64,000 nucleotides of DNA from an uncultured Gammaproteobacteria bacterium (GTDB lineage Bacteria; Patescibacteriota; Microgenomatia; Woykebacterales; RBG-16-39-9b): contig OZ246414.1 of NCBI GenBank assembly GCA_965231125.1, positions 81,739 to 145,738 on the forward strand. Direction: 5' to 3'. A program made the translations under genes and the position numbers. Below, in pieces: positions 20,773 to 40,765 of this stretch (the stretch's first letter is position 1; the number at the start of each line of letters is the position of its first letter). The notes beneath the pieces are model-generated. The model did no database searches. It saw only the letters and a list, made by a program, of their open reading frames with translations, and was not told the DNA's origin.

Positions 20773-20774
20773 TT

Positions 20775-21104: not shown

Positions 21105-21108
21105 GCTG

Positions 21109-21591
21109 ATGTTTAAAAAATTTCTGCTGGGCAACGGATTAAACAAAATATCAACTTTCCTGATGACCGGGGGCATTTTGTTTCCGATAATTAACAGCTT
21201 GGCTGTAAAAACAATTTACGCAGCGCCAACAACTCCTACATCCGCTACCGCCAGCTCTACCGTCAGCGCAAGTTCGTCGGCAACCTTCCATATTCCAAAC
21301 CTAATCCCTTTTAAAAATCTTGGTGATCTTTTCCAAGTCCTTTTGAGTCTGGCTTTTTTTGCAGCGGGGCTCGCTTTTTTTCTCAATTTAATTGTCGGCG
21401 GCTTTCAGTGGATTTCCTCTGGTGGAGACCCCAAAGCCTTGCAAACCGCCAGAGGCCGAATAATGAACGCTTTTGTAGGATTGATTATAGTGGTTGCCGC
21501 CTACGCAATTGCCTTAATAGTCCAAACTGTGTTGGGAATAAGAATAGTCAGTGGTTTTTGTATTCGTTTGCCGGGCGGAACATGTCCTTGA
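21109..21591 (+). CDS. TrbC/VirB2-like T4SS pilin with Cys-x2-LPGGT-x-Cys tail
   Basis: GGFQWISSGGDPKALQTARGRIMNAFVGLIIVVAAY and a C-terminal FCIRLPGGTCP. Confidence 0.6.
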   Translation: MFKKFLLGNGLNKISTFLMTGGILFPIINSLAVKTIYAAPTTPTSATASSTVSASSSATFHIPNLIPFKNLGDLFQVLLSLAFFAAGLAFFLNLIVGGFQWISSGGDPKALQTARGRIMNAFVGLIIVVAAYAIALIVQTVLGIRIVSGFCIRLPGGTCP

Positions 21592-21664
21592 CAGATTGGC
21601 ACTTGCCAAAGTATTTTTTATCTGTATATAATTATGTTAGAGGAAAGGTGGGGGTAGACAGTCT

Positions 21665-22063
21665 ATGAAAAAACTCGTCTCTGCCACAATAGTAAGTGTT
21701 GCTACATTCTTTAGTTTTGCGGGAGCTGCATTCGCGGTGGATTCCCCAAATATACGGGGTTTTGATTCAAACAGCATTCCTTTCCCAAACTTAGGTAAGT
21801 TGATAAGTAATATTCTCTCGTTATTATTTTTCTTCGCCGCCCTACTTGCATTTCTTTTTATTATCTTAGGTGGTATCCAATGGATTACTGCCGGTGGTGA
21901 CAAAGTCGCTGCTCAATCGGCCCGAGATAGAATTACAGCGGCGGTCATTGGTTTGGTAATAGTAGTCGCCGCTTTCGCCATAACCGTTATTCTCTCGAAG
22001 GTCTTGGGAATTAATCTCTTCGAATACAACTTCCCCGGCACATCCACTACCGCCGGCGCCTAA
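21665..22063 (+). CDS. TrbC/VirB2-like T4SS pilin
   Basis: Signal peptide plus GGIQWITAGGDKVAAQSARDRITAAVIGLVIVVAAF. Confidence 0.6.
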   Translation: MKKLVSATIVSVATFFSFAGAAFAVDSPNIRGFDSNSIPFPNLGKLISNILSLLFFFAALLAFLFIILGGIQWITAGGDKVAAQSARDRITAAVIGLVIVVAAFAITVILSKVLGINLFEYNFPGTSTTAGA

Positions 22064-22076
22064 AACTCTAAAAACG

Positions 22077-23255
22077 CTAATTTGAGAATCCGGTAGTTCC
22101 AGTAAGAATAGTAAAGTAGATTTTTGAGACAGGTAGACCAGTAAGTAATGGGTAGTAAAAAGCAAACAGCCCAAAGCACGAAATTATAAACCCCGCAAGT
22201 AAAAACTTTTTCCCCTCAAAATTCTCTTCTATCATTTTACTAAGTAAAATTACCCCAAACGGCAGCGCTGGGAGCAGATAATACTGTAGAGTGTTGTGGT
22301 AAGCGAAAAACCAAGGGAGCCAAAAGCAGGCAAAGGCTCCCAGCAAAAAGAGCTTTTCAGACGTAAAGTCTCTTTTTTTTATCACCAAAATAATTGCCCC
22401 CAGAATTCCCCAAAAAATGGCGGGGTTAAAGAGAAAAATAACGCTGCGGACTGTGTTTCCGACAGTTTGACCCAAATAAGGAAGCGGTGGATCCAAAAAC
22501 CAAAGCCAGGGAGGATAACCCAAGTTGTCTTTGGATTTTAGAAAAAGATGGTAATTAGCCATTTGCCACTGCAGGTGAAAAAGGCTGTCAAGAGTGTGGT
22601 TTTTTAAATAAAAACTATACGAGGCGAAGTAGACTAACAAAACAACTGTTATTAACTGAGCAATTTTCAACAGGGAACGGGGTTTCTTCTTAAGAAGATA
22701 AAATCCCAAAGCAAAAATTAGTAAAAATAGACCGCTCCATTTTGACGATATTGCCAGCCCAAAGAAAAACCCGCTTAATAATAAATCTTTGGAACTTTCG
22801 CTTTTAAGAAATTTCCAAAAGAAATAGCCAGCTGCCAGGCTAAAAGCAGCCACGTAAATTTCGATAGTACCGAGCCGTGAACTTACAAACCAACCAAACT
22901 CGGCTGTTAAAAAGAGGCTTGCCAAAACTGGAATAAACTTTCCGCCAAACATTTTTTCCGCCAGCAGGTAAATAAATACGACCCCCAAACTCCCGACTAA
23001 AACTTCTGGTATTCGCCAACCCCAAACGTTGTCACCAAAAACATGGATACTTGCCGCCATAAAAAGTTTTGCGACTGGCGGGTGTTGGAAATTAGCTAAA
23101 AAATCCCCGTGCAGGTAGGCACGGGCCGCCGGTATGTAAAAAGCGCCCTCGTCAAAATAAGCGCTTTGGGGAGAATTTAGTAGAAAAAGTTTCGTCAGAA
23201 AGTTAAAGAGAAAAATCAGCGTAAGGAATACAAAGTCAAAACGAGCAAATCTCAT
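22077..23255 (-). CDS. GT-C fold glycosyltransferase (GT39/ArnT/PMT-like), polytopic membrane protein
   Basis: 392 aa with at least 10 TM helices and the N-terminal loop pattern typical of dolichyl/undecaprenyl-phosphate-sugar dependent glycosyltransferases. Interrupts the pilin array on the opposite strand. Confidence 0.5.
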   Translation of the reverse strand: MRFARFDFVFLTLIFLFNFLTKLFLLNSPQSAYFDEGAFYIPAARAYLHGDFLANFQHPPVAKLFMAASIHVFGDNVWGWRIPEVLVGSLGVVFIYLLAEKMFGGKFIPVLASLFLTAEFGWFVSSRLGTIEIYVAAFSLAAGYFFWKFLKSESSKDLLLSGFFFGLAISSKWSGLFLLIFALGFYLLKKKPRSLLKIAQLITVVLLVYFASYSFYLKNHTLDSLFHLQWQMANYHLFLKSKDNLGYPPWLWFLDPPLPYLGQTVGNTVRSVIFLFNPAIFWGILGAIILVIKKRDFTSEKLFLLGAFACFWLPWFFAYHNTLQYYLLPALPFGVILLSKMIEENFEGKKFLLAGFIISCFGLFAFYYPLLTGLPVSKIYFTILTGTTGFSN

Positions 23256-26610: not shown

Positions 26611-27501
26611 ATGAAAAGGCTGCTGCCACTGGCAGCGATAACGCTTTTGGTTGTTCTGGCTTACGCTTGCGGAGCTAAGGCCAGTACGCTAAAGAGCAAC
26701 ACTAACGCAGCTTCTGGCCTAGAAGCACAAATAACGCCTTGGGAAAAAGCTCAAGACGTGGCGAATGTTTCGCCAGAGATCACCAAAGCAGAGCTTGGTG
26801 ATGGAGCAGAGCTTGCAAACGAAATTTCGTTTGCAACTCTACGTCCGTTTTACCTAGCTCAATTCACGGGACTATCCTACGACTCCAATTACCAGTGGTC
26901 CGATTGGAGTTCCGATCCGCAAGGACAGCAGTTGGCCAGTGAAATCGAGCAAGAAGGGGTGGCGAGTAAACAAGAAACGCTGGACGGTTTGTACGCATCT
27001 AGTTTCATCCGCTACCATACCGGTACACTGAGCTGGGATGGGACTTCGCTTGGTGCTTGCCCACCAGGACCGCAGCATTTGGTGATTATCACCACAATCG
27101 TGTTCGGGCAAGCCGAAGGGGCCGCTTCCTTCTTCAACAATATTGTTCTACCGGAAGACGACGGTCTGAAGGGCCAGGTGGAGGCTCACCCTACTAACGG
27201 TACCACCGGGTTCGCTTGGTTCGACGAGCAAGAGAAGCAAAACACTTGTCTCTTGCCGGTCCAAAACGATGGGATGGTGGAGACTCACTACATAACCTAC
27301 CCAAGAAAGCAGAGTATTGCCTGGGTAGTCACTGGTACTTTTGTGATCAGAGTGGTAGAGACACTCGGCACATCAACAACAGCCAATCTAACTACCAACA
27401 CTGGTGAGTCCTTTAATCCAGACCCGAACCACTCTGCTGGCAATTACGCTAGCGATCAGGAAACGGCACTGAGATCGGCTTTACCGGAATATTTCCAGTA
27501 A
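26611..27501 (+). CDS. secreted (lipo)protein, hypothetical; moderately GC-rich
   Basis: Strong SD (AGGAGGAGAGAC) before MKRLLPLAAITLLVVLAYACG (a lipobox-like AYAC). No catalytic motif. Confidence 0.5.
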   Translation: MKRLLPLAAITLLVVLAYACGAKASTLKSNTNAASGLEAQITPWEKAQDVANVSPEITKAELGDGAELANEISFATLRPFYLAQFTGLSYDSNYQWSDWSSDPQGQQLASEIEQEGVASKQETLDGLYASSFIRYHTGTLSWDGTSLGACPPGPQHLVIITTIVFGQAEGAASFFNNIVLPEDDGLKGQVEAHPTNGTTGFAWFDEQEKQNTCLLPVQNDGMVETHYITYPRKQSIAWVVTGTFVIRVVETLGTSTTANLTTNTGESFNPDPNHSAGNYASDQETALRSALPEYFQ

Positions 27502-27575
27502 CCCAAAGCGGTTCGAAATCACATCGAACCGCTTTTTCATTGACAAATAAACTCGGCATCTATAAAATTGAATTA

Positions 27576-29270
27576 ATGTCTCTGCCCAAAAGATTAATTT
27601 TAATCTTTACTGTAATTTTAATTGCGATTTCCTTTTTTAGCTTAATTCCCCTAACGCAAGCCGCCTCTTCGGCTAGCAAACCTCAGAATAATCAACCGGT
27701 AAGTTCTAATAAAATCCAACCGATACCGGCTTCTTCAAACACAAATTTTCAGTACATTCCGACACCAAATGGAAATTACCAAAACCAAGAAGTAGCCCTT
27801 GGACCTGTTGGCGATTGGTTTGCTAATCGATTTCACGACGCAATCACCTTTTTCAGTGACCCTCTAGCTCCAATAGTAAAAGCGGCTCTCTTCTGGACTC
27901 AAGACGCTGCCTACCAACAGGCGGAAGGTTGTCCTTTTGAGGATGCCCAGTGCCATAATGATCAACGCCAACAATACCTTGCCGGAACTGATATTGCCCA
28001 CCTTTCTCACCCTGGAGCGCTGGATTACGCTTCCACCCTTTTGAGTAGTAGTTTAGATCTTCCGGTCCCCCTCGACTCAAGTCAATACTTCGCCTCGATT
28101 AATCCTTTTAGCCAGGCCCATGCATCCGGGGTTGGGGACCTCGCTCAAGACCCCATCCTTCACGTCTGGCAAAGAGTCCGAAATGTTGCCTACGCTGCCA
28201 GTGCGGTGATAATGATAATTTTGGGCTTTATGATAATGCTGCGTTGGAAACTAGACCCCCGAACCTCTGTGACAATTGCAAATTCCCTGCCCCGAATAAT
28301 TGTTGCTTTACTTTTAATTACCTTTAGCCTGGCTATTGCCGGTTTAATGATTGACCTCGCCAGAATAGTCACCAACCTTGCCACTGATTTGATTCCAATT
28401 ACGCTGCGCGGGGCGATGGGGTTAGCAGTTCTCGGTTTTTTTGCAGTGGGATCTTTGGTCCTGCTTTTTACTGCTGGCAGTACTATTGCTGCGGGCCCGG
28501 CTGGCCTCAGTATCGCCTTCATTACAGTTCTTCTGCTGTCGTTGATTTTGGTGATAATAATACTAGTTGTCTTCATTGTCCTTATTTATAAAATCTTAAT
28601 GCGCTATATAACCTTCATCGTTTTGACAATTTTTGCGCCTTTCTTTTTCTTAATTGGGGCCATTCCGGGGCTGGAAGGCGTAACCGCCAGCTGGTTTAAA
28701 CGCCAAATTGCCGCCCTTCTGGCAATACCGGCCATTGCCCTGATGGTTAATCTTTCCTTTTGGATTGGTTTTTCTGGTGCTGGCAATCTACCCAATCCCT
28801 GGCAGACAGGACCGTTACCAGTTGGTATCGTTGGAAATATTTTAAACTGGACAATTCTTTCCCCGATTGTCGGGCTTGGACTTTTCTTCTTCGCCACAAA
28901 AATGCCGGATATTATTGATGAGATGTTGCAAGTTAAACCTCTCGGTGCCAGAGCCGGAATCGGCCCCGGTGCTATACTCGGCGCCCCGATCGCTGCCTTT
29001 GGAACGCTCGGAACTGTTAACAGAGGTTTTCGAACCTTCCAACAAGGAGGTATGCTTTACGGCGCTTTACAAAATGATTCCCTTCTTGGCCGCTTATACC
29101 GACCTGTGGCACGTTTTGGTAGTTCTTTCCGTAAAAACCCAAAACCAGCCTTTCCACCTGCAGCTGGTGACGCGTGGGGTCAGGGTCTAAGAGATTTTGA
29201 ACGAAGCCGACAGGCTCAAGGACAACCTAGACAGGAAGGTGAACCACCCGACAGACCCCCAGGGACATAG
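27576..29270 (+). CDS. polytopic membrane protein, VirB6/TrbL-like (inferred)
   Basis: Signal sequence, a periplasmic domain, at least six TM helices and a Gly/Pro/Gln-rich C-terminal tail. Topology and locus context match VirB6. No sequence motif confirms it. Confidence 0.4.
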   Translation: MSLPKRLILIFTVILIAISFFSLIPLTQAASSASKPQNNQPVSSNKIQPIPASSNTNFQYIPTPNGNYQNQEVALGPVGDWFANRFHDAITFFSDPLAPIVKAALFWTQDAAYQQAEGCPFEDAQCHNDQRQQYLAGTDIAHLSHPGALDYASTLLSSSLDLPVPLDSSQYFASINPFSQAHASGVGDLAQDPILHVWQRVRNVAYAASAVIMIILGFMIMLRWKLDPRTSVTIANSLPRIIVALLLITFSLAIAGLMIDLARIVTNLATDLIPITLRGAMGLAVLGFFAVGSLVLLFTAGSTIAAGPAGLSIAFITVLLLSLILVIIILVVFIVLIYKILMRYITFIVLTIFAPFFFLIGAIPGLEGVTASWFKRQIAALLAIPAIALMVNLSFWIGFSGAGNLPNPWQTGPLPVGIVGNILNWTILSPIVGLGLFFFATKMPDIIDEMLQVKPLGARAGIGPGAILGAPIAAFGTLGTVNRGFRTFQQGGMLYGALQNDSLLGRLYRPVARFGSSFRKNPKPAFPPAAGDAWGQGLRDFERSRQAQGQPRQEGEPPDRPPGT

Positions 29271-29540
29271 CTTCGCCAGCAATACCACTAGTTGCACCAT
29301 CCTGATATAATTCAAGTCACGGGAAATACTGACCTGACGCTAAAGGAGAGGTTATGGTAAAAATAATATCCTTCCTATTAGGTCTCCAACGAGGTGGTTT
29401 ACTTTGGTCCCTGCTGGCTCAGCCTGATGGAGTTCTTCGCAGGTTAGCCAAATCGCTTCTGCGAATTGGTAGTTTTCGAAGAAAACGACAGATACCAGCA
29501 ATACCGCCAGACCCTTCACAGACACGCAGGATCCGAAACT

Positions 29541-29603
29541 AGGCAAAAGAAAAGGGCCGGTTCGTACATTAAGCATTTCTGCTTATTGCACTTACCGGCC
29601 CTT
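29541..29603 (-). terminator. putative terminator hairpin downstream of giant ORF
   Basis: AAGGGCCGG ... CCGGCCCTT, a 9-bp stem with a long loop, followed on the minus strand by a T-rich run. Confidence 0.35.
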
Positions 29604-29609
29604 CGCAAC

Positions 29610-32600
29610 CTAAGCGGCTACAATCACAAATCCGCTATTGGGTTCTGGCACTGCGCTCGTAACTAGGTTGTTGTGGCCCATATAGACCATCTTGATGTAC
29701 CTGATGTAACGCTGCTTCTCCTCCTCTCCTATGTTCCTAATCGCTTCCCGTAGAACGTTATTGATTTGGTCCCAGCGATATTTGTCGACGATCATTTCCG
29801 CAAGCTTCATAGAGTATCGGGAGTCAATTTTTGCCCAGCGGGCAATAGTGACAGTCAGGCGATCAACGTCCATCTCCCTCATCGCCTTGCCTCTCTGGAC
29901 TCCATCTTGCTCTTTGAACCTAGAGAGCCACCAACTATTACCCTTTAGGCTCTTGGCGCTTTCCTTAACGAACTCGAGTTCGTCTGTCTCACTCCAGTGA
30001 CCAAGCTCCCGCGCCCTGGCTTTACCGAGACTGTTGTCGAACACTCGGTTCCACCAAACCCATTCCCCATCTCGAACAAATTTGGACTCTGACTCAGCAT
30101 CGTCCCCGATTCGGAAGGGGTAACCCTCGCTGATCCAGGAACCGTAGGTGCCTCCGGAGAAAGCGTGGGCCCGACCCAAAAGGGTGAGCTCCATCTCCCT
30201 CTCTTCCTGGTAAGCGATCGCTGGTCTGCGCAGATCCCAAATCATTCGCTCCATACCGATCCGGCGACCACCAGGAAGCCCGAGATCGAATCTGCCCTTC
30301 GGAATTACGATGGTGGGTAGGCCTTCGGTGTTCCGCCGGACTACGGGGACCACCTGCTGCACCCGGTTAGTCATCGCTTCTTGCAAAGCGTACTGAACCC
30401 TAGCCCGCTTTGGCTCCTCGGGCTGGTGAGCCCACATTGCGTACATGAAGTTACGCGCTGCAGTGGCGTTGTCGTAGTTCACCCGAATGAAGCTATCATA
30501 GCCGTACGTATTTGGGTTGGACAAGCGCACGTTAAGCACCGCCAACGCATTCATCTGACCTAGAATCGCCTCGTTCTGCAGCCAAACGGTGATAGGGTCT
30601 CGGACGGCAAACTCGATGGTACGGGTCCAATCGTCCTCGTCTCGGTAGTTGCGTACCCTGCTGGTGAACTCCTTAACTAGCGTGTCAAAGTCGGGCATCG
30701 CCCCATCACCAGCCGCCGAGTTTAGCCCTCGCTCGCGCTTGAGCTGATCCAAGGCGACTGCCATTGCCTCGGCGTACAAAGTTGCCTGAGCACCGTCGTG
30801 AGGCATCTTCTGCCAGGGTTCCTTGAAGAACCAGGCCCAGTCAAGTAGCGAGCGACGAAGCTCAACCCTTTCCTGGGACACCTCCACGAAACGCTCAAAT
30901 ATCTCGTTTCCGAGAACGTACGCTTCCCTTTCGTCCCGAGTCGGTTCTTTGATCTCCGAGAAGACAGCCTGCCATTCCTCATGAACAAGCTTGTCCGGTA
31001 TCTCTTCTGGACTAGGGATCGGCGCAAAAGCCTCCCCCCGATGCAGTTTGCCCAGAAGGTGGGCCTGGAACCGAGCGCACCGATGCAGAATCATGTACCG
31101 CCGGTCGCAGGTATAATCGATGCTCTCCCACTCACCACCGAAGTTGTTCTGGACATACCGAGCTACGTCCGCATCTTCCATATTCCAACCCTCACGTTTG
31201 GTCCGCATAGAGCGGGCCATCTGCCAGAATTGAATACGGTGCAGACGCTTTCTGCGTCGCTCGATATTTTCCGCCCTGTAGCGGAAGGTGGAGTGATCCA
31301 CCACTGGTTCCCAGCTACCGTAGGAAGGCTGGTAAACTAGCTTCCCTGTCTCCTTATCAACCTTGGATTTACCAGGACGGTATACCCAAGTCACGGTGGA
31401 TGGTTGCTCCACGTACACCGCGAGCTGCACGAGCTCCTTGAGAGCCTGTGCCTGGCTGACTGGATCCGAGGTTTGCGCCCCAAAAATATCCGCCAGAAGC
31501 CAAGGCTCGTTCATCTGCTCGCTTGGATACGAACGGTCCATGTTTTGGTCCACGAAGCTATCCTGATCGCGGAGCCAACGTGCCCACCATTTCTTTAGGG
31601 CTTTGCGACCCTTTGTCTTTTCGAGCTCTATCATCTCTTCTTCGGTGGGTATGCGGAATCCGCTAACTACCTCACCAGTTTTAGGATCGCGTTTCTGCTT
31701 CCGACGGACCGTTTCTTCGAAGTATTTCCACGTCGCCCCGTAACCGAAGTACTCGGTTCCATCCTCATCCGTATAGTAGAGGATTTTCTCCGAACACACT
31801 TTGTGAGCGAGCATGGTGCGGCCTTTTATGTTCAGGTCGCCCACGTCGATTTCGTACTTCTCAGTGTGCGGATTGTAGTGCAGGCCTTCGGGAAATTCCT
31901 GAAAGACCCCTTCACGAACGTTTGCACCATTGCGGTAATACTCCGCTTCCACGCGGCTGCGGAGTGCCTCTTTTTCAGCTTCAGACAGCTCTTCGAGCTC
32001 CCCGGTTTCGGGGTTCTCCACGAAGTAATACCACTGATCTGGTTCCTTCGGGCGAAGCTTCAGCCGAAGCGCGCGGCGGTAGACGTTGTCTTTCTCCCGC
32101 CATTCATCCATTGGTGCGTTGGGTTTGTGCGGTGGAGGGACTTTATTCAACCCTTCGTTGTTCACTGGAAGGTCTCCAGCTCCAACAGCAGGGTAGAACA
32201 CTCGATAGCGAGTAAAGTCCTCTCTCTTCGCGATATCCTCCGCGTGCAACTTGCGCATAACTTCCAGCCGGGAAGAGCCAGGGTTCTTTTTGAGAGCCCG
32301 ACGCATCCGGTGGTAGCTACGCGACACACGCCGAATTTCCCGGTGGTACATCCAGTTAGGATAGCGTCCACCGGGACCAATGTCTTGACGAACTCTAGCG
32401 TGGTTCAGCTCGGGCGAAAGAACGAACATGTTCGTGTCGATACGAACCTGCCCAAGAGAAACCTCAGAGTTCTCTATTTCTTGTTGAAGTTTCTGTACTT
32501 CTTCCCACATGTGCTTTTGTTTTACGGTGTCCGAGATTCCAAACGAGAGAGTGCTGATGAGAAACGGGTTTTTTCCCTTACGCTCAATAGCGTAGCATAG

Positions 32601-32945
32601 AATCGGTTCCCGCTCTCCCATTGGGAATTCGGGCTTTCCGTCTCTGCCAACCCGCCATACCCCGTCCCTTGGTACAACGACTCGCTCCTTAGGCTTGGCT
32701 GTAACCACTTCCATGAAGAAGCGGCGGCCACCCCTCTGCCCGTTGATCTGGAAACCTTGTTCCGAATACTGCGTCTCAGCCAGAGCTTTGAGCTCCTGCT
32801 CTAGCGATGGGAGACCAGCGTATGCCCCCGATCCATATTCGGCTGGGGTTATTACCAGATCCGGTATTCTACCGAACCTAGTTCCGGGAAGAGCTTCCTC
32901 GAACTCTTCGCCATAACCGTCACCGTCCCCATTACCATTTGTCAT
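29610..32945 (-). CDS. giant orphan protein (about 1113 aa), soluble, Arg/Glu/Trp-rich, in a compositionally distinct (about 55-60% GC) segment
   Basis: Continuous ORF. The start is assigned to MTNGNGDGDG, preceded by an AGGAGG SD; the ORF track's upstream extension lacks an SD. No TM, no Walker A and no recognisable catalytic motif. Confidence 0.6.
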   Translation of the reverse strand: MTNGNGDGDGYGEEFEEALPGTRFGRIPDLVITPAEYGSGAYAGLPSLEQELKALAETQYSEQGFQINGQRGGRRFFMEVVTAKPKERVVVPRDGVWRVGRDGKPEFPMGEREPILCYAIERKGKNPFLISTLSFGISDTVKQKHMWEEVQKLQQEIENSEVSLGQVRIDTNMFVLSPELNHARVRQDIGPGGRYPNWMYHREIRRVSRSYHRMRRALKKNPGSSRLEVMRKLHAEDIAKREDFTRYRVFYPAVGAGDLPVNNEGLNKVPPPHKPNAPMDEWREKDNVYRRALRLKLRPKEPDQWYYFVENPETGELEELSEAEKEALRSRVEAEYYRNGANVREGVFQEFPEGLHYNPHTEKYEIDVGDLNIKGRTMLAHKVCSEKILYYTDEDGTEYFGYGATWKYFEETVRRKQKRDPKTGEVVSGFRIPTEEEMIELEKTKGRKALKKWWARWLRDQDSFVDQNMDRSYPSEQMNEPWLLADIFGAQTSDPVSQAQALKELVQLAVYVEQPSTVTWVYRPGKSKVDKETGKLVYQPSYGSWEPVVDHSTFRYRAENIERRRKRLHRIQFWQMARSMRTKREGWNMEDADVARYVQNNFGGEWESIDYTCDRRYMILHRCARFQAHLLGKLHRGEAFAPIPSPEEIPDKLVHEEWQAVFSEIKEPTRDEREAYVLGNEIFERFVEVSQERVELRRSLLDWAWFFKEPWQKMPHDGAQATLYAEAMAVALDQLKRERGLNSAAGDGAMPDFDTLVKEFTSRVRNYRDEDDWTRTIEFAVRDPITVWLQNEAILGQMNALAVLNVRLSNPNTYGYDSFIRVNYDNATAARNFMYAMWAHQPEEPKRARVQYALQEAMTNRVQQVVPVVRRNTEGLPTIVIPKGRFDLGLPGGRRIGMERMIWDLRRPAIAYQEEREMELTLLGRAHAFSGGTYGSWISEGYPFRIGDDAESESKFVRDGEWVWWNRVFDNSLGKARARELGHWSETDELEFVKESAKSLKGNSWWLSRFKEQDGVQRGKAMREMDVDRLTVTIARWAKIDSRYSMKLAEMIVDKYRWDQINNVLREAIRNIGEEEKQRYIRYIKMVYMGHNNLVTSAVPEPNSGFVIVAA

Positions 32946-33817
32946 TTGTGTTTCCTCCTCGCTGTTGAACCACCTCGACTTAGTCGAGGGTGCTGACCGG
33001 CAAACTTTCTTTGTGAGAACTGTTTCCCACTTTGGTGTTTGCTGGATCAGCAGCAACACCAAGGGGCGGCCGAAGGCCAGTTTTAAATTATAAGACGCGG
33101 GACATATGTCCAAAACACTAGAATCTTACATCCTAAATCTGACATCCATCCGTCCCTCGGTGTTACCTATACTAAGGAGGGGTCCTGGTTTTCACCGGGA
33201 CTTCGACTTGTCTAACGACAAGTCTTGTTTTTTGCTTGTTACCTCAATTTTTCGGCGTACTACAGGTTTAATCCTGTAGTTCTTTTGATCTTTATTCGTT
33301 TTTTAAGGTGCACATTAGCTTTTCGAAAATAGATCGCTCCGTAACCAAATCCAAGTGATTTGGGTACTCTCGCGTTCTGTGCTTTAAAAAAGCTAAGGGC
33401 TCTGGGTGACAAATTTCTTATCAACCAGAGCCCACCTTCGGGGTCCTATGAAGGGACACCTCAACTCGGAGGTGGCTCTGGATTATTTAGTTTAATTTTA
33501 AGTTCGCCCTTACTCATTTTTTCTAGCCTCTACTGACTGGCCGAATTTTAGCATAACTTAGCTTAAATGTCAACTATAAGTCATTTTGTAACTTCGAAAC
33601 CTGCGAGCTCTTGGTTTCTCAGGTACTCTCACGTCTCGCGCTAGGCGTCTTAACGCCTAGCTAAGAGCGCATCGGTTTTTATTCGCGCAGTACGATACAG
33701 TTTGACTCGGTTGCTTTTAGCCTCCCCATGAGCCATAATAATCCCTACAATAGTCGTAAAAAGCTATTTTTCGGCGAAGGATCAGCGAAGCGAGCCGAAG
33801 TATTGTAACCAAAAGTT

Positions 33818-34342
33818 ATGCAACAGCATCCTGTCCCACAGAACATAACAAGTTTTGAATTTAAGCTAGTTGGGTTTCTGACGATTAAGCAATTCGGCTA
33901 TCTTGCCGCTGCCGGAATTTTTTCCTTTGTCTTTTTCATTTCTCCAATACCGACCCTTTTAAAAACTATCGTTATTACTCCTTTTGCCGCAGCCGGACTT
34001 GCCTTTGCTTTTGCTAACATAAACGGTCTCTCGTTTGACAAGTGGATCGTTGCCTTTATTCACTCGGTCTATTCCCCGTCAAGAAGGGTTTGGCACAAAG
34101 TGCCGAAGGAGATAAGTTTTCTCGCGCCAAATTTTTCCTACTATCTCAAGCGGCCGCCTACCCAACAAAAAATTGCCAGTGGCGATCGGACTCGTTTAGA
34201 AAAATATCTTGCGCAGTTGCGAAACCAGCGTTTTAATTCTAATCTCGATGTTTTTGAGGAAATGCGCCTTTCAAAAATTGACTTTAGGGCGACTGTTCCT
34301 CACTTTACAACCGTAGACTCCCAAAGGGATGAAGGCGACTGA
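33818..34342 (+). CDS. PrgI/VirB3-like small membrane protein (inferred)
   Basis: 174 aa with two adjacent TM helices near the N-terminus. Sits two genes upstream of VirB4 and overlaps the next gene. Confidence 0.4.
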   Translation: MQQHPVPQNITSFEFKLVGFLTIKQFGYLAAAGIFSFVFFISPIPTLLKTIVITPFAAAGLAFAFANINGLSFDKWIVAFIHSVYSPSRRVWHKVPKEISFLAPNFSYYLKRPPTQQKIASGDRTRLEKYLAQLRNQRFNSNLDVFEEMRLSKIDFRATVPHFTTVDSQRDEGD

Positions 34343-35825
34343 GATGGCAGAACCCAACCAAGAAAAGACAGCGGCATATTTTCCTGAGATACCGACAGAT
34401 TTGCCGGAGAACGTCCCGTCTTATCCTGGCAAAAATCTACCCCGCGCCTATAAACCGGCGGCACCCTCCCGCGACGTTACTCACGGGCTGTTGGAGGGGA
34501 CGCGGAGTTTTGCCTCGGAAGTAAATTTTGATCCAGTTACAACTTTAAACCTGCCGGATAAAAACGTCTACGTGCGGCCGGTTAAAAACCTAAAATCCCG
34601 GGATATCACTCCATTACCTCTCAACGGCCCATTAAGTTTGCCTTCCAAAGGGGAGAAGATTTTTGATCTCTCGGCCGACTTTCAACGTCAGATTGAAGCG
34701 CGACTTTCTTATATTATGAATCAGTATGAAACCAAATCTAACCCTAACTTACCTGATTTAGCTCCACCACCTAACCTTAGTCCGGAGACTCCCAGTCCGG
34801 CGGAAACTGCTCCTGCCGCTGCCCAACCTGGGCAAGCTGTCCAGCGCCCGGTTATCAGCCCAGAAATTAGCGCGGCGGCCCAAGTCCCTCAAAGAGCACT
34901 GGAGACGCCACCTGCTCAACCCCAGAGTCCGGTTCCATATCAATCAGCCAATCGGTTACCTTCTGACCAAGAAGCTCTGCTTGATATTCTAACTAGACTA
35001 GAGAGGCAAATCCGAGAGTTGGAGATTCAAAAAAACGCCGCCCAAGCAAGGGTTGTTGAGCTAACCAACAAATATCAATCGCAAATTTTGGCGCTGGCAA
35101 AAAACCAAGAAGGTTTTAGCTCTGTTATTGAGCAGCTGAAAAATCAACTTGTCGAGGAGCAAAAAAAGAAACTGGCCGGGGACGCCATGGTCAACACTAT
35201 TAAAACAGAATCCCAAGTCGAAATTCAAAGACTAAAGATTGAAAGAGACTCTCTTCTTTCCCAGCTAAAAGAGGCCCAGACCAAAATTTCTGATCTACAA
35301 CAGACCGCGTCTAAATTCCCAGTTTCAGAAATACAAGTATCCGAACTTAAGGCCCGCCTGGCCCAGGTGGAGAGGGAAAGATCTGATTCCGAGGAAAAGA
35401 TAATGAAGTTGCAAAGTTTGGTGGACGATTTAAGGACGGGTTCCCGTGTGGCTGAGGAAGAAAGACACGTTATCACTGCTCAGGCGGTACCAGTAGAGTC
35501 TCTGACCACGGCAAAAATCGTGTCCCCGGCCCCAGCGTTTGGAAAAATGGCGCCTCCACTTACCACCATTCCTAACGTTGTTAACGGTATCATCAAAGAT
35601 CGCGCTGGCCTGCTCTTAACTGATGTCATAATTGTCGTAAAAGATGAGGCGAGTAACCCTGTAAGGGCCTTAAAATCGAATAAAATTGGTCAATTTGCTA
35701 TCTCAACACCACTACCAACCGGCACTTACACTATGGAACTTGAAAAAGAGGGTCAAGAATTTGATCTTGTCCAAATAAAATTGGAAGGAAAAGTAATGCC
35801 ACCCGTGGAAATAAAATCTCGGTAA
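34329..35825 (+). CDS. Pro-rich coiled-coil protein with C-terminal beta domain, T4SS-associated (inferred)
   Basis: PxxP-rich N-terminal half, a long coiled coil (ERQIRELEIQKNAAQARVVELTNKYQ...) and a C-terminal beta-sandwich-like domain. Overlaps the prgI-like gene by 14 nt. Confidence 0.4.
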   Translation: MKATEMAEPNQEKTAAYFPEIPTDLPENVPSYPGKNLPRAYKPAAPSRDVTHGLLEGTRSFASEVNFDPVTTLNLPDKNVYVRPVKNLKSRDITPLPLNGPLSLPSKGEKIFDLSADFQRQIEARLSYIMNQYETKSNPNLPDLAPPPNLSPETPSPAETAPAAAQPGQAVQRPVISPEISAAAQVPQRALETPPAQPQSPVPYQSANRLPSDQEALLDILTRLERQIRELEIQKNAAQARVVELTNKYQSQILALAKNQEGFSSVIEQLKNQLVEEQKKKLAGDAMVNTIKTESQVEIQRLKIERDSLLSQLKEAQTKISDLQQTASKFPVSEIQVSELKARLAQVERERSDSEEKIMKLQSLVDDLRTGSRVAEEERHVITAQAVPVESLTTAKIVSPAPAFGKMAPPLTTIPNVVNGIIKDRAGLLLTDVIIVVKDEASNPVRALKSNKIGQFAISTPLPTGTYTMELEKEGQEFDLVQIKLEGKVMPPVEIKSR

Positions 35826-35847
35826 GGGCAGCTGGTTTCAAAACCTT

Positions 35848-36564
35848 ATGGCCAACAAAAAAATTTACACAACTCAAGAACATTTAGATATCGATGACGT
35901 TAGAGACAATTTGGCCGTTCTAAAAAACGGGGAGGCGGTCGCGATTATTCAGACAAACGCGATCAACTTTGACCTTTTAAGTGAAAGGGAGCAGGACGCA
36001 ATGATCTTTGCCTACGCTGGCTTGCTAAACTCCCTCACGTTTCCGATACAAGTTTTGGTGAGATCAAAACGTTTAGATCTTTCCAATTATTTACAGTATC
36101 TTGCTCTTTACCGGCGGCAAGCCAAAAACCCACTTTTGGTTGCCCAAATGGATAAGTACGCCTCTTTTATTAAGGATTTAGTTGCAAGGAATGAGGTTTT
36201 GGATAAGAGATTTTATATAGTTGTGCCTTATCTAGCTATTAGCCTTACTCAATTAAAAAGTCTAGGCGGCGGCCTTTTAGGTAAAAAACCGCGAGGCACA
36301 AATCGCTGGAGCACCATTGAGAAAGCTAAAGTTAATCTTGAGCCAAAAATCGAACACATCGTTAAACAGCTTGCTCGGATTGGAATTAAAGCCAAACAGC
36401 TTACCACTGAAGAATTAGTCGAGCTTTTTTACGACTACTACAACCCCGAGGTAGCCAGGGAACAGAAAGCAGCTCTTTCCACCTCGGAGTACACAACTCC
36501 AATTGTGGAACCGGCGGTAAGCCCAATTTTAGAGCAGTCACAAGGAGACACGAATGCAACTTAA
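35848..36564 (+). CDS. putative N-terminal domain of a split VirB4/TraC-family protein
   Basis: 238 aa. Overlaps the VirB4 ATPase ORF by 11 nt. The combined length of 862 aa matches a full-length VirB4. Confidence 0.35.
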   Translation: MANKKIYTTQEHLDIDDVRDNLAVLKNGEAVAIIQTNAINFDLLSEREQDAMIFAYAGLLNSLTFPIQVLVRSKRLDLSNYLQYLALYRRQAKNPLLVAQMDKYASFIKDLVARNEVLDKRFYIVVPYLAISLTQLKSLGGGLLGKKPRGTNRWSTIEKAKVNLEPKIEHIVKQLARIGIKAKQLTTEELVELFYDYYNPEVAREQKAALSTSEYTTPIVEPAVSPILEQSQGDTNAT

Positions 36565-38428
36565 TCCTTTTAAAAAAAGGGAAAAGGTTGACCCGGTAGA
36601 AGCAGAACTGGCTCAAACCCGAGCAAAAGTGGCCAATGTTCTCGGTAGGGGAATGACAGATGTAAAGGACGTGATTGCTCCACCGGCCATTGAAATCGAC
36701 TTTGATTACTTAAGAATTGGTGAGTTGTACTTCCGCACATTATTTATCACTGGCTACCCTCGCTTTGTCGGTGCTAATTGGCTGGCTCAAATTATAAATT
36801 TTGACCATACCCTTGATATTTCCTTCTACTACTACCCCGTTGAATCGAAGGGAATACTTGACGATCTGCGGCGAAAAATCGCCGAGATGGAGGCTACGAT
36901 TGAAAGCGACCTAGAGGCAGGTAGAGTCTTAGATCCTGGGGTCCGAATTGCTTTAGAGGATGCTCAAGCCCTCCAGGAACAGCTAACCGCTGGTATCGAA
37001 CGCTTCTTCCAGTTTTCTTTCTACATAACCATACCCGCTTACTCCTTAGAAGAACTCAACTCTGTTACCAAACAAGTAGAAGCGGCCCTTGGGTCTCTTT
37101 TGGTCGTCTCCAAGCACGCGACGCTACAACAAGAACAGGCTTTTCAATCTGTCTTACCTACCTTCACCGATAAACTTTTGGTGACTCGGAACATGGACAC
37201 GACTTCTTTGGCTACAACTTTTCCTTTTGTTTCTAGCGAGCTAACTGCTAATGAAGGGGTTATGTACGGCATTAACGAACACAATGGATCTTTGGTCATT
37301 TTTGACCGCTTTAGCCTGGAAAATGCAAACTGCGTCGTCTTTGCAAAATCCGGAGCCGGAAAAAGCTACTTAGTTAAACTGGAGACTTTGCGTCAATTAA
37401 TGTTTGGCACTGAAGTTTTAGTTATCGATCCAGAAAACGAGTATCAAGCCTTAGCCGAGGCGATTGGAGGAGAATATATGGAATTTAAGGCCGAGTCCGG
37501 AATAAAAATAAACCCCTTCGATCTTTCCGGTATCTACCAGCAAGGAGAAAACGAACTAGGTTTAAAAATTTTGGCTCTTCACTCCCTTTTCCGAATTATG
37601 ATGGGTCAGCTAACGCCAATGGAAGATGCTGTTTTAGACAGAGCCTTGGTTGCTACCTATAAATTAAAGGGTATAACTCCAGACCCGGCCACCCAAACAA
37701 GACAGCCGCCGATTATGGAGGACCTTTACAATATCTTACTTAACATGGCGGAGCCGGAAGCTAAGGGAATGGCAACTCGTCTGGAAAAATTCATTCGGGG
37801 TTCTTTATCCGGTGTATTTAATGAGCAAAGCAATATTAACCTTAGAAATACCTTTACTGTTTTTTCTATCCGTGATATGGAGGACGAACTGCGCCCAATT
37901 GCAATGTTCATCGTCTTAGACTTTATCTGGACGAGGATCAAAAGAAATCTTAAAAAGCGGGTTCTTGTGGTAGACGAGGCTTGGTATTTAATGAAGTACC
38001 CTGACTCAGCTGCTTTCATGTACTCCATCGCAAAAAGAGCCCGTAAATACTTTTTAGGGGTGACAACAATAACTCAAGACGTCGAAGACTTTCTTTCTGG
38101 AGATTACGGTAAGGCAATTGTTACTAACTCATCTATGCAATTTCTATTAAAGCAGTCACCGGCGGCGATAGATGCAGTTACTGATATTTTTTATTTGTCC
38201 GAGGGGGAGAGAAATTTACTGCTTTCTGCCGAGATCGGCGAGGGCCTTTTCTTTGCTGGCCCTAACCACGTGGCTATTAGGGTTCAGGCTGCACCACACG
38301 AACACGGGTTAATTACTTCAAACCCAGCTGAGCTTGTTGAGAGTAACCAGCCCTCAAATATTTCCGCGCCAAACAGCCCCCCGACAGAAGAAACTACTTA
38401 TCCGGGGTCTACCCCAAACCAACTCTAA
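36554..38428 (+). CDS. virB4: VirB4/TraC/CagE-family type IV secretion ATPase
   Basis: Walker A (VVFAKSGAGKSYLV) and Walker B (RVLVVDEAWYLM), with the overall TraC-like layout. Confidence 0.8.
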   Translation: MQLNPFKKREKVDPVEAELAQTRAKVANVLGRGMTDVKDVIAPPAIEIDFDYLRIGELYFRTLFITGYPRFVGANWLAQIINFDHTLDISFYYYPVESKGILDDLRRKIAEMEATIESDLEAGRVLDPGVRIALEDAQALQEQLTAGIERFFQFSFYITIPAYSLEELNSVTKQVEAALGSLLVVSKHATLQQEQAFQSVLPTFTDKLLVTRNMDTTSLATTFPFVSSELTANEGVMYGINEHNGSLVIFDRFSLENANCVVFAKSGAGKSYLVKLETLRQLMFGTEVLVIDPENEYQALAEAIGGEYMEFKAESGIKINPFDLSGIYQQGENELGLKILALHSLFRIMMGQLTPMEDAVLDRALVATYKLKGITPDPATQTRQPPIMEDLYNILLNMAEPEAKGMATRLEKFIRGSLSGVFNEQSNINLRNTFTVFSIRDMEDELRPIAMFIVLDFIWTRIKRNLKKRVLVVDEAWYLMKYPDSAAFMYSIAKRARKYFLGVTTITQDVEDFLSGDYGKAIVTNSSMQFLLKQSPAAIDAVTDIFYLSEGERNLLLSAEIGEGLFFAGPNHVAIRVQAAPHEHGLITSNPAELVESNQPSNISAPNSPPTEETTYPGSTPNQL

Positions 38429-39528
38429 ACTTTAACTTCGACAGTTCCTTCATTAACTTTAAAAATTTTACTCTCCTTTAAAATCCACTCAGGGAAGATA
38501 GTCTCCGAAGTGGCGGTGATAATACTTTGCTGCTTTGGCAAAGCCTTAAGTATATGTTCTTGGTTAATTTTATCAAACTCACTTAAAACATCGTCCAAAA
38601 GAAGGGTAGGGTCGGTGCCGAAACTCTCTTTAATAAAGGCTAGCTCGACCAATTTTAAGGCTAAGGTGGCAAGTCTTTTCTCACCCCGAGATCCAAAGAT
38701 ATTAATATCTTTTTCCAGAAGCACGTCCGACTTTAAAGTTTCAAACACTATTTTGAAATCGTCTCGGTGGGGACCAAAAGACGTTACCATTTTTTCGATA
38801 TCGGTTTCTTTGTTTTTTACTAGTTGCAGGCTAATTAGCCTTTTTATTTCACTGGCGTCTTTAACTTTTTCTTTGAACGGCGCGTAATCTATGCGTATAG
38901 TCGCGTTTGCAATTTTTTCACTGGTTTTTTTCAGAAGCTTGTTTATCTCTCCAACAAACGCGAGCCGCCTCTCCCAAATGAAGCTTCCTAGGCTGGCAAT
39001 CTGTTTGTCCCAAGGCAAAAGGTCTTGGGGTTTACCTGCCTTTATAAGCCAGAGGAGTTTATTGCGGTTTTTCATGGCTCTAAAGTACCGGCTCAAAGAG
39101 TAGAGATAGTTTTTATCCGTCACCGAAAGGGTCTGGTCTAAAAACCGTCGTCTTTTTTCCGGACCGCCGGAAACAATATCCAAGCTTTCTGGTGAGAACA
39201 GGACTACCGGAAAGACTCCAATTACGGAGGCTCTGTTTTTGGGTTGATTGTTAACAGAAACTTTTTTCATCGTTTTGTTGATAAGAATTTTAATTTCGTT
39301 ATGCGCGGCGTTACCCCTAACTTGGGCTTCTTCCGCAGCCCAATTAATTAGATCCGCGTCGATATTCGTCCGAAACGATTTCGTGGTGGCTAAAAGATAA
39401 ATGGCTTCAATTATATTTGTCTTACCTTGAGCGTTATTACCGACAAGCAGATTAATTTTCTGAGAAAGAGGTAGTTTCAAATTTGAAATGTTTCTAAAAT
39501 TTTTTAAATAGAGGTTTTCTAACCACAT
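38425..39528 (-). CDS. recF: DNA replication and repair protein RecF
   Basis: N-terminal Walker A (LLVGNNAQGKTNIIEAI), an SMC-like signature near the C-terminus, and a position after dnaN. Confidence 0.85.
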   Translation of the reverse strand: MWLENLYLKNFRNISNLKLPLSQKINLLVGNNAQGKTNIIEAIYLLATTKSFRTNIDADLINWAAEEAQVRGNAAHNEIKILINKTMKKVSVNNQPKNRASVIGVFPVVLFSPESLDIVSGGPEKRRRFLDQTLSVTDKNYLYSLSRYFRAMKNRNKLLWLIKAGKPQDLLPWDKQIASLGSFIWERRLAFVGEINKLLKKTSEKIANATIRIDYAPFKEKVKDASEIKRLISLQLVKNKETDIEKMVTSFGPHRDDFKIVFETLKSDVLLEKDINIFGSRGEKRLATLALKLVELAFIKESFGTDPTLLLDDVLSEFDKINQEHILKALPKQQSIITATSETIFPEWILKESKIFKVNEGTVEVKV

Positions 39529-40631
39529 TAGTTCTGGGTTCGAACCGGCATAACAAGATACATAAATGAGGGGTCTTCGGCAGACTTTATCAGTGCTGGT
39601 TTATCGGGGCCGGCGAATTGAACCTCAAACTTTTCGCCGGTTAGTACTCCTACGCCCTCGGCGAGAAAACGACTGTTAAAAGATATTTTGATATCCTGTC
39701 CCTTAACTTTAGCCTGTAGACTTACCCTTCCTTCCCCAATTTGCGCTGAAGAAGCGCTTATAGATTGCTCTTTCTCGCTAAAGAGTAGGTGAACAACATT
39801 TCCGATATCTTTTGCAAAGGTGGTCGCCGTTTTTAGATTACTAAGAAAATCCTCTTTTTCTAAGAGAGCACTCGCGATAAATTGATCTGGAATTATTTGT
39901 TCAAACTTAGGGAATTCTCCCGCAAGTAGTTTTGTAAATACTTCTGTATGGGCTACTTCAAAGTAGGCTTGATTATCGCCCCGCGATATACCTATATTTA
40001 TAAACTCATCTTCTGATTCATCAAGAATTTTGCTTGACTCCATAAGTACACGCGCCGGAACAATTACTTCTTCCTCGTCCAGAAGGACTCCCATATCTTT
40101 TTTGGCGAGCCGATAACCGTCGGTTGCAACTAGCTGAGTGTTTTCTTTATTGGTCCTAAACAAGACTCCTGTTAGGATTGGTCGCCCTTCGTCTAAACTT
40201 GCAGCTACCCCTACTTGTTTTACCGAAGACAAGAGAGATTTTTTTTTAATTTTTTTGCTTTTTGATTTCTCTGCTTCCGGTGGGGTGGGGAACTCGCTGG
40301 CGGAAATTGTCGGCACGCTCGCGTGCGTTTTGGCGGTGTTGATCACTAAGCTTTCTTTTTCTAATTCTAATGATATCTTCTCGTCCGCTACACTAGCCAA
40401 AAACTCAATTAAAGTTCTTGCTGGAGCGGTTACTGCCCCTTCATTTAAAATCTTCGCTGGGACCCAGGTTTTGATTGTTGTTTCTAAATCCGTACCAATT
40501 AATCTCAACCCCCCAGATTCTGTTTCCATGAGGATATTACCTAAGACCGGAGTTGTCGGTTTAACCGTCACTGCTTTACCAACAAAACTGACCGCTTTGT
40601 AAATATCATCTTTGTTGATCTGTAATTTCAT
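39528..40631 (-). CDS. dnaN: DNA polymerase III beta sliding clamp
   Basis: Three-domain beta-clamp pattern. The start is set at MKLQINKDD, because the upstream 14 codons are the AT-rich intergenic sequence. Confidence 0.8.
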   Translation of the reverse strand: MKLQINKDDIYKAVSFVGKAVTVKPTTPVLGNILMETESGGLRLIGTDLETTIKTWVPAKILNEGAVTAPARTLIEFLASVADEKISLELEKESLVINTAKTHASVPTISASEFPTPPEAEKSKSKKIKKKSLLSSVKQVGVAASLDEGRPILTGVLFRTNKENTQLVATDGYRLAKKDMGVLLDEEEVIVPARVLMESSKILDESEDEFINIGISRGDNQAYFEVAHTEVFTKLLAGEFPKFEQIIPDQFIASALLEKEDFLSNLKTATTFAKDIGNVVHLLFSEKEQSISASSAQIGEGRVSLQAKVKGQDIKISFNSRFLAEGVGVLTGEKFEVQFAGPDKPALIKSAEDPSFMYLVMPVRTQN

Positions 40632-40765
40632 ATATAGTATATATAATATAATAGTAGTATTAGGCGGTGTCAAAATGTCAGTAACTAGATGCAGGTTACA
40701 ATGACGTTAGAGGGCAGCAAAGGACACACTTCTCTGTGCAAAACATGTGAGCAGAAGGTGAGTAA
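40632..40765. promoter_or_regulatory. dnaA-dnaN intergenic region with an AT-rich tract (candidate DNA-unwinding element)
   Basis: TATATAGTATATATAATATAATAGTAGTATT lies immediately upstream of dnaN. No perfect TTATCCACA boxes were found. Confidence 0.35.

Follow-up and report, generated by a model that had tools for sequence, protein, structure and literature searches.

The Patescibacteria, for which the name candidate phyla radiation (CPR) is also in use, account for a large part of the diversity of bacteria, and in cultivated Saccharibacteria the genes of a type IV secretion system (T4SS) are indispensable to life as an epibiont. Uncharacterised proteins are numerous in the CPR, and a lack of annotation alone is unremarkable. 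Here we consider a large gene on the minus strand of a 64,000-nucleotide stretch of contig OZ246414.1 (the whole stretch is called the window in the following), which encodes a protein of 1111 amino acids and lies within a T4SS cluster. Its interest stems from a combination of features, namely a fixed slot in the secretion cluster, extreme divergence, a maintained guanine-plus-cytosine (GC) and structure signature, and a conserved leader that may adopt several states.

The closest described systems are the chromosomal T4SSs of Patescibacteria that resemble the FATA class of mating-pair formation (MPF) systems (Quinonero-Coronel et al. 2025, PMC12102498). According to this survey they lack a relaxase, a coupling protein is rarely found near virB4, and the substrate is unknown. 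The window shares with them VirB4, PrgI (VirB3-like) and a TraC-like protein, a divergent VirB6-like protein, T4SS_pilin arrays and a cell-wall hydrolase, as well as the absence of a relaxase and the position beside dnaA and dnaN that is seen in the Microgenomatia. It differs in the large soluble protein encoded between the VirB6-like gene and prgI, since the survey lists neither such a protein nor its leader or composition.

A resident gene of the secretion cluster

The open reading frame (ORF) runs on the minus strand without interruption from 29610 to 33113 and would comprise 1167 amino acids if counted from the first TTG. The true start is, with near certainty, the ATG at 32945, because GAGGAGG lies upstream of it and because the Shine-Dalgarno (SD) sequence, the ATG and the N-terminus are kept in the closest homolog. 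The coding sequence (CDS) of 29610..32945 (stop codon included) therefore yields 1111 amino acids, and the conservation between 32946 and 33113 is that of RNA elements, not of protein. The SD sequence (GAGGAGG, 32954..32960, minus strand) is located 8 nt 5′ of the ATG in a context, CAAGGAGG, that is kept in all loci. Downstream of the gene, an intrinsic terminator (29542..29603, minus strand) is formed by two 24-nt arms (29552-29575 and 29580-29603) that are 83% complementary and are followed by TTTTCTTTT; the homolog in locus L001 is likewise ended by an equivalent hairpin and T-run. With a promoter and a leader of its own, which are described below, the gene is monocistronic. A preliminary description of the window, made from the letters alone, had noted the single uninterrupted minus-strand ORF, the SD sequence AGGAGG and the hairpin terminator, all of which we find as well; it was also right in calling the ORF large, though its length of about 1113 amino acids has to be corrected slightly. 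A 74-amino-acid ORF that is called in some assemblies (29352-29576, minus strand) overlaps the terminator hairpin and is probably no gene.

By sequence comparison, the ORF is a real gene and not a chance ORF, because it has homologs, the closest of which, P0002, is 46% identical to it in an alignment that covers 99% of the length. An exhaustive HMMER search of 1.84 billion representatives (E ≤ 1e-3) brought up 23 family members, mostly of 920-1170 amino acids, so that the term orphan used in the preliminary description does not apply. A word-indexed homology search returned only the protein itself and P0002, its profile version added none, and scans of metagenome contigs with protein patterns and invariant leader motifs gave nothing. 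The CDS is thus backed by homology to 23 relatives and by an AlphaFold model (see below).

A set of loci was compared, consisting of the window, L001, L005, L006, L010/L011, L012, L013, L014 and L015. In every relative for which genomic surroundings are at hand, and read along the strand of the gene, the order is prgI in opposite orientation, a non-coding leader of 0.6-0.9 kb, the family gene and the convergent VirB6-like gene. This slot is identical in nine loci, in eight of which the pair of PrgI and the gene is complete, while L015 comprises only the gene and its convergent neighbour. Beyond prgI follow genes of the series dnaA-dnaN-recF-virB4-traC-like, and beyond the VirB6-like gene a Peptidase_M23 gene, the T4SS-pilin array and a PMT glycosyltransferase gene. 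The large gene is therefore a fixed resident of an MPF-FATA-like T4SS cluster close to the replication origin (oriC) in a Woykebacteria-related CPR clade (Microgenomatia), where its neighbours are always the VirB6-like gene on one side and prgI on the other, each of them read from the other strand. The preliminary description had proposed to look beside the T4SS loci of related genomes, and the gene is found there in the same slot. In the window, the neighbour PrgI is matched by Pfam at E 5.8e-12, with VirB4 next on the same side. The other neighbour, a protein of 576 amino acids with multiple transmembrane segments and no Pfam match, is called VirB6-like by topology and position only. The distance from its stop codon to that of the large gene (29271-29609) is about 340 nt in the window and 47-85 nt in the other loci.

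Two of the loci belong to reference metagenome-assembled genomes that were reached via VirB4 as an anchor, a Candidatus Woykebacteria genome (L005) and one labelled as Nanoarchaeia (L006), and both have the same slot. The slot gene of L006 is P0011, whereas that of L005 encodes 922 amino acids. The idea that the latter is unrelated, which came from blank results with BLAST and a two-sequence hhalign comparison, was rejected in view of its match to the family hidden Markov model (E 6e-30) and of P0022 as a bridge. The contig of L006 (DASVHF010000004.1) is labelled "Candidatus Nanoarchaeia archaeon" and carries bacterial dnaA, dnaN and recF together with a CPR T4SS (VirB4 at 74% identity); the record is probably a mis-binned or mislabelled contig.

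The genomes that carry the gene are deeply diverged. DnaA identity to the window is 46-62% in the loci compared, and between the window and L001 the values are 62% for DnaA, 57% for DnaN and 61% for RecF. Among the loci, VirB4 is 74-86% and PrgI 38-65% identical, whereas identity of the family protein goes from 46% down to a level that BLAST does not detect. Divergence of the family is partly incongruent with that of the locus, since the pair of loci that is closest in VirB4, the window and L005 (85%), is the most distant in the family protein. The family ORF is nonetheless intact over 2.8-3.5 kb in at least nine divergent loci.

The protein itself is rich in Glu, Arg, Trp and Tyr (10.3, 9.6, 2.9 and 4.2%, versus 5.9, 4.3, 1.1 and 2.9% in its neighbours). 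Over its 1111 amino acids we found no transmembrane segment (maximum Kyte-Doolittle value of a 19-mer, 0.87), no signal peptide, and none of the motifs Walker A, HExxH and YxDD, such that the description given earlier on these points (no transmembrane segment or signal peptide, no Walker A, HExxH or reverse-transcriptase motif, rich in Arg, Glu, Trp and Tyr) is borne out by the scans and the composition. The best Pfam-A match, DUF2817, is far from significant (E 0.16, 11.8 bits versus a cutoff of 23), and none of the 23 family members has a Pfam match. PHROGs gave a best match at E 0.18, NCBIfam and PADLOC nothing meaningful, and no relative in the PDB came up with either the single sequence or the profile of the family. 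With respect to a T4SS ATPase or coupling protein (VirB4, VirD4/TcpA) or a relaxase, there is no Walker A motif, Pfam match or PDB profile relative. A tblastn search of 50,697 phage records and 72,556 plasmid records gave no match.

An AlphaFold (AF2) model was obtained from the 23-sequence alignment with a mean pLDDT (predicted local distance difference test) of 75.6 and a pTM (predicted template modelling score) of 0.73; a model from a two-sequence alignment (pLDDT 31.6) was discarded. In this model an acidic, disordered Gly/Glu-rich tail at the N-terminus is followed by a short ordered unit, a further stretch of predicted disorder covers approximately residues 100-165, the part up to about residue 560 would be alpha/beta, and the C-terminal half would be all-helical. 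Foldseek comparison of the model with the PDB gave a best E of 0.21 at a TM-score of about 0.1, i.e., chance-level matches or generic helical bundles, and comparison with BFVD a best E of 0.098. The remote-homology and fold comparison proposed in the preliminary description, run with HMMER, profiles and Foldseek, hence brought up relatives but no known family or fold, and its statement that no family can be assigned stands for Pfam, NCBIfam, PHROGs, PADLOC, PDB and BFVD. As far as sequence and model searches go, this is a previously undescribed, lineage-specific protein family.

Motifs of the family extend over the whole alignment. They comprise the acidic N-terminus, [LIV]TxEEY[GA]xG, DRxxPSEQ, RxNDWGGxWN and MxHDGxL, and furthermore RGLNSxAGxGxxP, VRNYxxExxW and MWxxxPxxP. 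The near-invariant positions are mainly Gly, Pro and Trp, plus R765, Y767 and E770, and judging from this pattern the protein resembles a classical enzyme less than it does a scaffold or a binding protein. At its C-terminal end the family has at least four alternative modules, and these modules still have motifs in common. The window protein ends in VIVAA, and its net charge is +1 over the last 30 residues and -5 over the first 30. C-termini ending in two alanines are present in several members (VIVAA, AIVAA, DLKAA, DPLAA, LERAA, ADKAA) and are reminiscent of ssrA-like degrons, and other subfamilies end in FFEINQ or PLDV[KV].

Nucleotide-level constraint on the coding sequence

The CDS has a GC content of 54.3%, as compared to about 40-47% over most of the window. 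The preliminary description had recognised that GC lies above the surroundings, although its estimate of 55-60% was slightly too high. At third codon positions (GC3) the value is 0.619, versus a mean of 0.400 (range 0.31-0.51, maximum 0.511) for 34 other long ORFs (z=5.1), and an excess over neighbours of 10 to 34 points is found in every locus with comparable neighbours (eight of nine). The shift is an avoidance of two-fold and AT-rich codons and not a uniform rise in GC3. TTT accounts for 29% of Phe codons in the gene versus 72% elsewhere, TTA for none of 74 Leu codons versus 23% in other genes, and the shares of AGA and AAA are 7% versus 28% and 43% versus 73%, respectively, while the four-fold Pro, Ala and Gly families are almost unshifted. 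Runs of six or more A/T residues are likewise reduced (3.3 per kb versus 12-19 per kb), and avoidance of TTA, AGA, TTT, AAA and A/T runs is family-wide. Translational selection was rejected as the cause of the codon bias, since GroEL, our proxy for highly expressed genes, does not have it. A uniform mutational cause or GC-biased gene conversion is disfavoured as well, given the AT-rich leader and the unshifted four-fold Pro, Ala and Gly codons.

The preliminary description had regarded the segment as compositionally foreign and possibly horizontally acquired. The same slot in nine loci and the GC3 excess in all eight comparable ones speak against this. Since the anomaly persists in a syntenic gene over deep divergence, it is a maintained trait and not the trace of a recent transfer, and next to the GC-rich CDS the leader, which belongs to the same slot, has remained AT-rich. 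A composition that looks foreign thus need not mean horizontal acquisition, as a GC3 excess of 10-34 points is kept here across deep divergence.

The CDS also shows an excess of predicted folding stability. Global shuffles in which protein, codon usage and all dinucleotides are preserved gave sense-strand z values of -7.0 for the window, -3.6 for L001, -4.1 for L005 and -3.0 for L010, as compared to +0.5 and +1.0 for the controls VirB4 and LeuRS; on the antisense strand, the values were -5.3 for the window, -0.8 for VirB4 and -0.4 for LeuRS. When shuffling was confined to 150-nt windows, which alters 14-20% of third positions, z was -3.0 for the window, -1.4 for L001, -4.1 for L005 and -2.1 for L013, with control values of +1.1 (VirB4), +2.8 (VirB6-like) and -0.4 (GroEL). 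The direction of the effect is thus real, and part of the global signal is local composition. In the CDS of the window the excess is diffuse, with z<0 in 84% of 150-nt windows, z<-2 in 11 of 43 and z>2 in one. An Rfam 15 scan of leader and CDS gave nothing at the gathering threshold and only chance-level matches at E ≤ 1. Together, the avoidance of AT-rich codons and A/T runs and the excess of RNA structure place the coding sequence under constraint at the nucleotide level. In a genome that is AT-rich, the GC-rich, structured mRNA probably gives stability to a long transcript whose translation is conditional.

Two loci have an additional GC-rich ORF on the stretch from prgI to the family gene, and each of these ORFs is preceded by a separate copy of the conserved promoter described in the next section. 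That of L006 (2366-3169, minus strand) encodes 267 amino acids with a Zn-ribbon-like CxxC...CxxC pattern, and that of L013 (8251-9366, plus strand) encodes 371 amino acids. They were rejected as family members, since they are unrelated to the family and also to one another.

Promoter, leader and a candidate attenuator

A sigma-70-type promoter, TTGACA-17-(TG)TAAAAT, with 11 of 12 matches is located at 33545..33573 on the minus strand, and both the promoter and the sequence CTATAGGATTGAC upstream of it are kept in eight loci. Its position predicts a leader of approximately 590 nt, in agreement with an AT-rich (about 43% GC) 5′ leader of about 593 nt (32946..33538, minus strand) that contains blocks conserved across loci. 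Further upstream, at about 33730-33750 of the window and in all related loci, there is a conserved box, TAGGGATTATTATGG on the minus strand, i.e., CCATAATAATCCCTA on the plus strand, which probably represents the -10 region of the divergent promoter of the prgI operon. The reading of this box as a short conserved ORF (MAHGEAK...) was given up in favor of the -10 region (CCATAATAAT, plus strand).

Regulatory leaders with a short, proline-rich ORF are known from Salmonella, where the mgtCBR and mgtA leaders contain the proline-codon ORFs mgtP and mgtL and act as attenuators (PMC3641672). Their function depends on elongation factor P (EF-P; PMC5299641, PMC6460261), and EF-P has been connected to the coupling of transcription and translation (PMC5021804). 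The leader of the window resembles them in its length, in a putative short ORF with consecutive Pro codons and, by analogy, in that translation of this ORF would choose between mutually exclusive stem-loops and thereby set transcription downstream. The candidate leader peptide ORF (33461..33517, minus strand) reads MSKGELKIKLNNPEPPPS followed by a stop codon, and has homologous ORFs, each ending in a stop codon, in L001 (MIGLVRIENLIPEPPPE), L005 (MNEAELRIKKLIIPEPPPW) and L013 (MRSLTIKLNILKAQGPPIR, with only two Pro codons). A first segment, CCAGAGCCACC (33471..33481, minus strand), corresponds to its P-E-P-P codons and is invariant in the window, L001 and L005, third codon positions included. 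It is predicted to pair with a second segment, GGTGGGCTCTGG (33425-33436), and to form an antiterminator.

The second segment is also part of a putative terminator hairpin (33386..33436, minus strand) with arms at 33418-33433 and 33397-33412 and a T-run at 33386-33391. In the window this hairpin has a predicted stability of -26.1 kcal/mol and is followed by six T residues. Such hairpins are situated some 100-180 nt past the start; their stability is -24 to -27 kcal/mol, with five to seven T residues in the run, for L006, L010 and L012 as well as the window, and L013 has an equivalent of -17 kcal/mol, likewise with a T-run. The 5′ arm of the terminator, GGGCTCTGG, can pair instead with the upstream CCAGAGCCACC, and in the predicted folds the first two segments alone adopt the antiterminator, while the whole leader, or a leader in which the first segment is masked, adopts the terminator. 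The intrinsic terminator is therefore predicted to share a strand with the antiterminator, as in attenuators of the trp/mgtP type. The differences from mgtP and mgtL are that the sequence is unrelated, that the leader belongs to a CPR bacterium, that the ORF occurs in one sub-clade only, and that the Pro codons themselves would form the antiterminator arm, with a canonical intrinsic terminator after it. Taken as an analogy, the leader resembles leader-peptide attenuators in logic only. If correct, a leader in which the codons of a polyproline peptide act as an antiterminator arm would be among the first elaborate cis-regulatory RNAs described in the CPR.

Closer to the gene, three further leader segments on the minus strand may take part in alternative pairings, namely A (AACACCGAGGGA, 33153..33164), B (GCCCCTTGGTGTT, 33055..33067; consensus CCCCTTGRTG) and C (AACACCAAAGTGGG, 33026..33039). 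Segment A is complementary to B, and B is predicted to pair with A, with its local partner C or with the SD region. The A:B duplex has a predicted stability of -19 to -22 kcal/mol in seven of seven loci, as compared to a median of -2 to -4 for other 13-mers from the same leaders, whereas the pairings of B with C (-12 to -17 kcal/mol) and with the SD context CAAGGAGG (-11 to -16) are weaker. Between clades there is a compensatory switch from GGTG/CACC to GATG/CATC, which is suggestive rather than conclusive.

Two Logan contigs from independent assemblies (L003 and L004) both break within the leader at about position 33358 of the window, just downstream of the attenuator hairpins; structured, repeated segments may have caused this through their effect on assembly or coverage.

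Possible roles of the protein

We consider it nearly an even matter, though somewhat short of that, that the protein works with the T4SS, be it as a translocated substrate or effector or as a cytoplasmic factor that presents the substrate. The argument in favor is that such a role would explain why the gene keeps its position, why export signals are missing, why divergence is extreme and in part incongruent with the locus, and why the C-terminal modules vary, in other words a protein that is soluble, hypervariable, modular and tightly gated. The family would thus be a concrete candidate for a T4SS substrate or a substrate-handling partner in this Microgenomatia clade, and among the roles put forward in the preliminary description, T4SS substrate or effector and novel protein continue to lead.

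There are precedents for parts of this picture. CagA of Helicobacter pylori is a T4SS effector that is encoded inside its secretion island. Like CagA, the protein is large, soluble, lineage-restricted and fast-evolving, has a variable C-terminal part and is encoded inside a T4SS cluster, but its translocation is only a candidate role, and the likely target would be a bacterial host cell. Polymorphic toxin and effector systems (Rhs, CdiA, LXG-type) also combine conserved N-terminal and central regions with alternative C-terminal modules among close relatives. However, there is no immunity gene here, only 47-85 nt separate the gene from the convergent VirB6-like gene in most loci, the C-terminal modules have motifs in common, and no known toxin or trafficking domain is present; in the loci examined, a toxin domain with an adjacent immunity gene was not found.

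Under this reading, expression would be gated at the level of transcription elongation. In the sub-clade with the leader ORF (window, L001, L005 and L013), the consecutive Pro codons at the end of the ORF would act as the 5′ arm of the antiterminator. A ribosome that pauses on these codons, be it through low EF-P or Pro-tRNA or through tight coupling, would leave the shared segment free to form the terminator, whereas a leader devoid of a ribosome would fold into the antiterminator and let RNA polymerase read into the large gene. That ribosome dwell on Pro codons might be the switch is proposed because of the analogy with mgtP and mgtL (PMC3641672, PMC5299641) and the role of EF-P in coupling (PMC5021804). 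Initiation of translation is probably tuned by the second element, in which B pairs with A, C or the SD region. The more specific proposal of a hypervariable secreted effector gated by an attenuator that senses polyproline synthesis and EF-P is put forward tentatively, as a possibility on the doubtful side.

Several observations weigh against a role with the T4SS that is gated in this manner. No homology ties the protein to secretion, and a gene that is strictly single-copy and keeps to one slot would suit a component of the machine at least as well as an effector. The protein contains no recognisable secretion signal; we know of none for MPF-FATA-like CPR systems. With respect to the leader, the T-run of the attenuator is weak in L001 and L005, the Pro-rich ORF is absent from L010 (which has a non-Pro ORF), L012 and L014 (which have none), L006 has a reading frame but no ATG, and the SD sequences of the leader ORFs are weak, such that control by a leader peptide may be clade-specific or wrong. 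Furthermore, the covariation in the leader amounts to two clade-specific haplotypes, which is roughly one event, and the structure signal of the CDS shrinks partly once local composition is fixed.

A possible but doubtful alternative is that the protein is not secreted and is an integral cytoplasmic component of the T4SS, such as a docking platform, a receptor for the substrate or a "very different" protein for the processing of DNA or substrate, which would replace the missing relaxase or the locally missing coupling protein. The single copy at the same position in every locus examined and the motifs kept along the whole length across subfamilies would fit this, as would the absence of a relaxase and the rarity of a coupling protein near virB4 noted in the published survey (PMC12102498). 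Fast divergence is moreover not confined to this gene, as the VirB6-like protein and a CarboxypepD_reg-like ORF also diverge rapidly (43-45% identity). However, the family exceeds every other protein of the locus in this respect, given that the window and L005 share a VirB4 of 85% identity and no family similarity that BLAST detects. The protein also lacks an NTPase or nuclease motif, its near-invariant residues being mainly Gly, Pro and Trp, and separate, tightly gated transcription would be unusual for a structural subunit.

It is unlikely that the gene is a resident without a role in secretion, serving for instance in defence or in nucleic-acid or cell-cycle functions near oriC, and is trapped or co-regulated in the locus. 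The lack of homology to any T4SS protein, the separate promoter and terminator, the orientation opposite to the T4SS genes and the adjoining dnaA-dnaN-recF genes would argue in its favor, but the gene lies strictly between two T4SS genes in all loci and across deep divergence, PADLOC gives no match, and unrelated genes seldom stay interleaved for so long in an operon-like cluster.

Even less probable is that the transcript is the main product or a second one, either as a large structured RNA or in a ribonucleoprotein with its own protein. Such a function would account for the GC-rich, hyper-structured CDS and the long leader with its conserved structures; the excess of folding stability over shuffles is found in four diverged members and not in the controls, and GC-richness is common to the unrelated extra ORFs in the slot of L006 and L013. 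Against this stand the intact ORF in at least nine loci with clear amino-acid conservation, a protein that AF2 can fold, the absence of an Rfam match, and a structure signal that is diffuse and lacks discrete conserved domains. A highly speculative combination of this with a role in secretion holds that the family is the cargo of the relaxase-less Patescibacteria T4SS and that its structured, GC-rich mRNA itself takes part. In this variant the message would be protected and stockpiled and then translated in a burst upon host contact; in the extreme case the RNA would be passed to the secretion machine within a ribonucleoprotein, comparable to the nucleoprotein substrate of conjugation.

As to a chimeric assembly, which the preliminary description had wanted checked at both junctions, assemblies from other data sets exclude it. 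A JGI contig from another sample matches positions 27000-36000 of the window at 99.94% without gaps, two Logan assemblies are 100% identical across the junction at 29.3 kb, and contigs from three other data sets encode the identical protein. Two views for which the higher GC and the deviating codon usage might speak, namely recent acquisition (from a phage, a plasmid or some other donor) and a contaminant brought in by mis-assembly, are refuted for practical purposes by the synteny and the same anomaly in genomes whose DnaA is 46-62% identical to that of the window, by junctions reproduced in three independent assemblies, by a codon shift that is not a uniform GC shift, and by the absence of phage, plasmid or viral matches, which together with the BFVD result also leaves the suggested phage or plasmid structural protein without support. 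A CRISPR-like (clustered regularly interspaced short palindromic repeats) or repeat-associated system was rejected too, as a repeat scan found no CRISPR arrays or meaningful repeats.

Some further features of the window complete the picture of the locus. The genes dnaA (40766-42160), dnaN (39528-40673) and recF (38425-39528), all on the minus strand, are located at the minimum of the cumulative GC skew at about 38-41 kb, and the T4SS cluster therefore abuts oriC. The T4SS genes of the window, being on the plus strand, are oriented head-on to replication, and the large gene is co-directional with it. The T4SS_pilin (PF18895) array (19330-23255 in the window, and also present in L002, L010 and L014) consists of four to six highly divergent genes with a PMT-family glycosyltransferase gene inside, which suggests that the pilins are glycosylated and variable. 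Finally, the region 919-13112 of the window harbors a tRNA cluster (Asn, four Ser and two Arg) and a tmRNA gene (12750-13112, minus strand), and within the same region the genes for RpoD (6502-7563, minus strand) and DnaG (7566-9452, minus strand) are adjacent.

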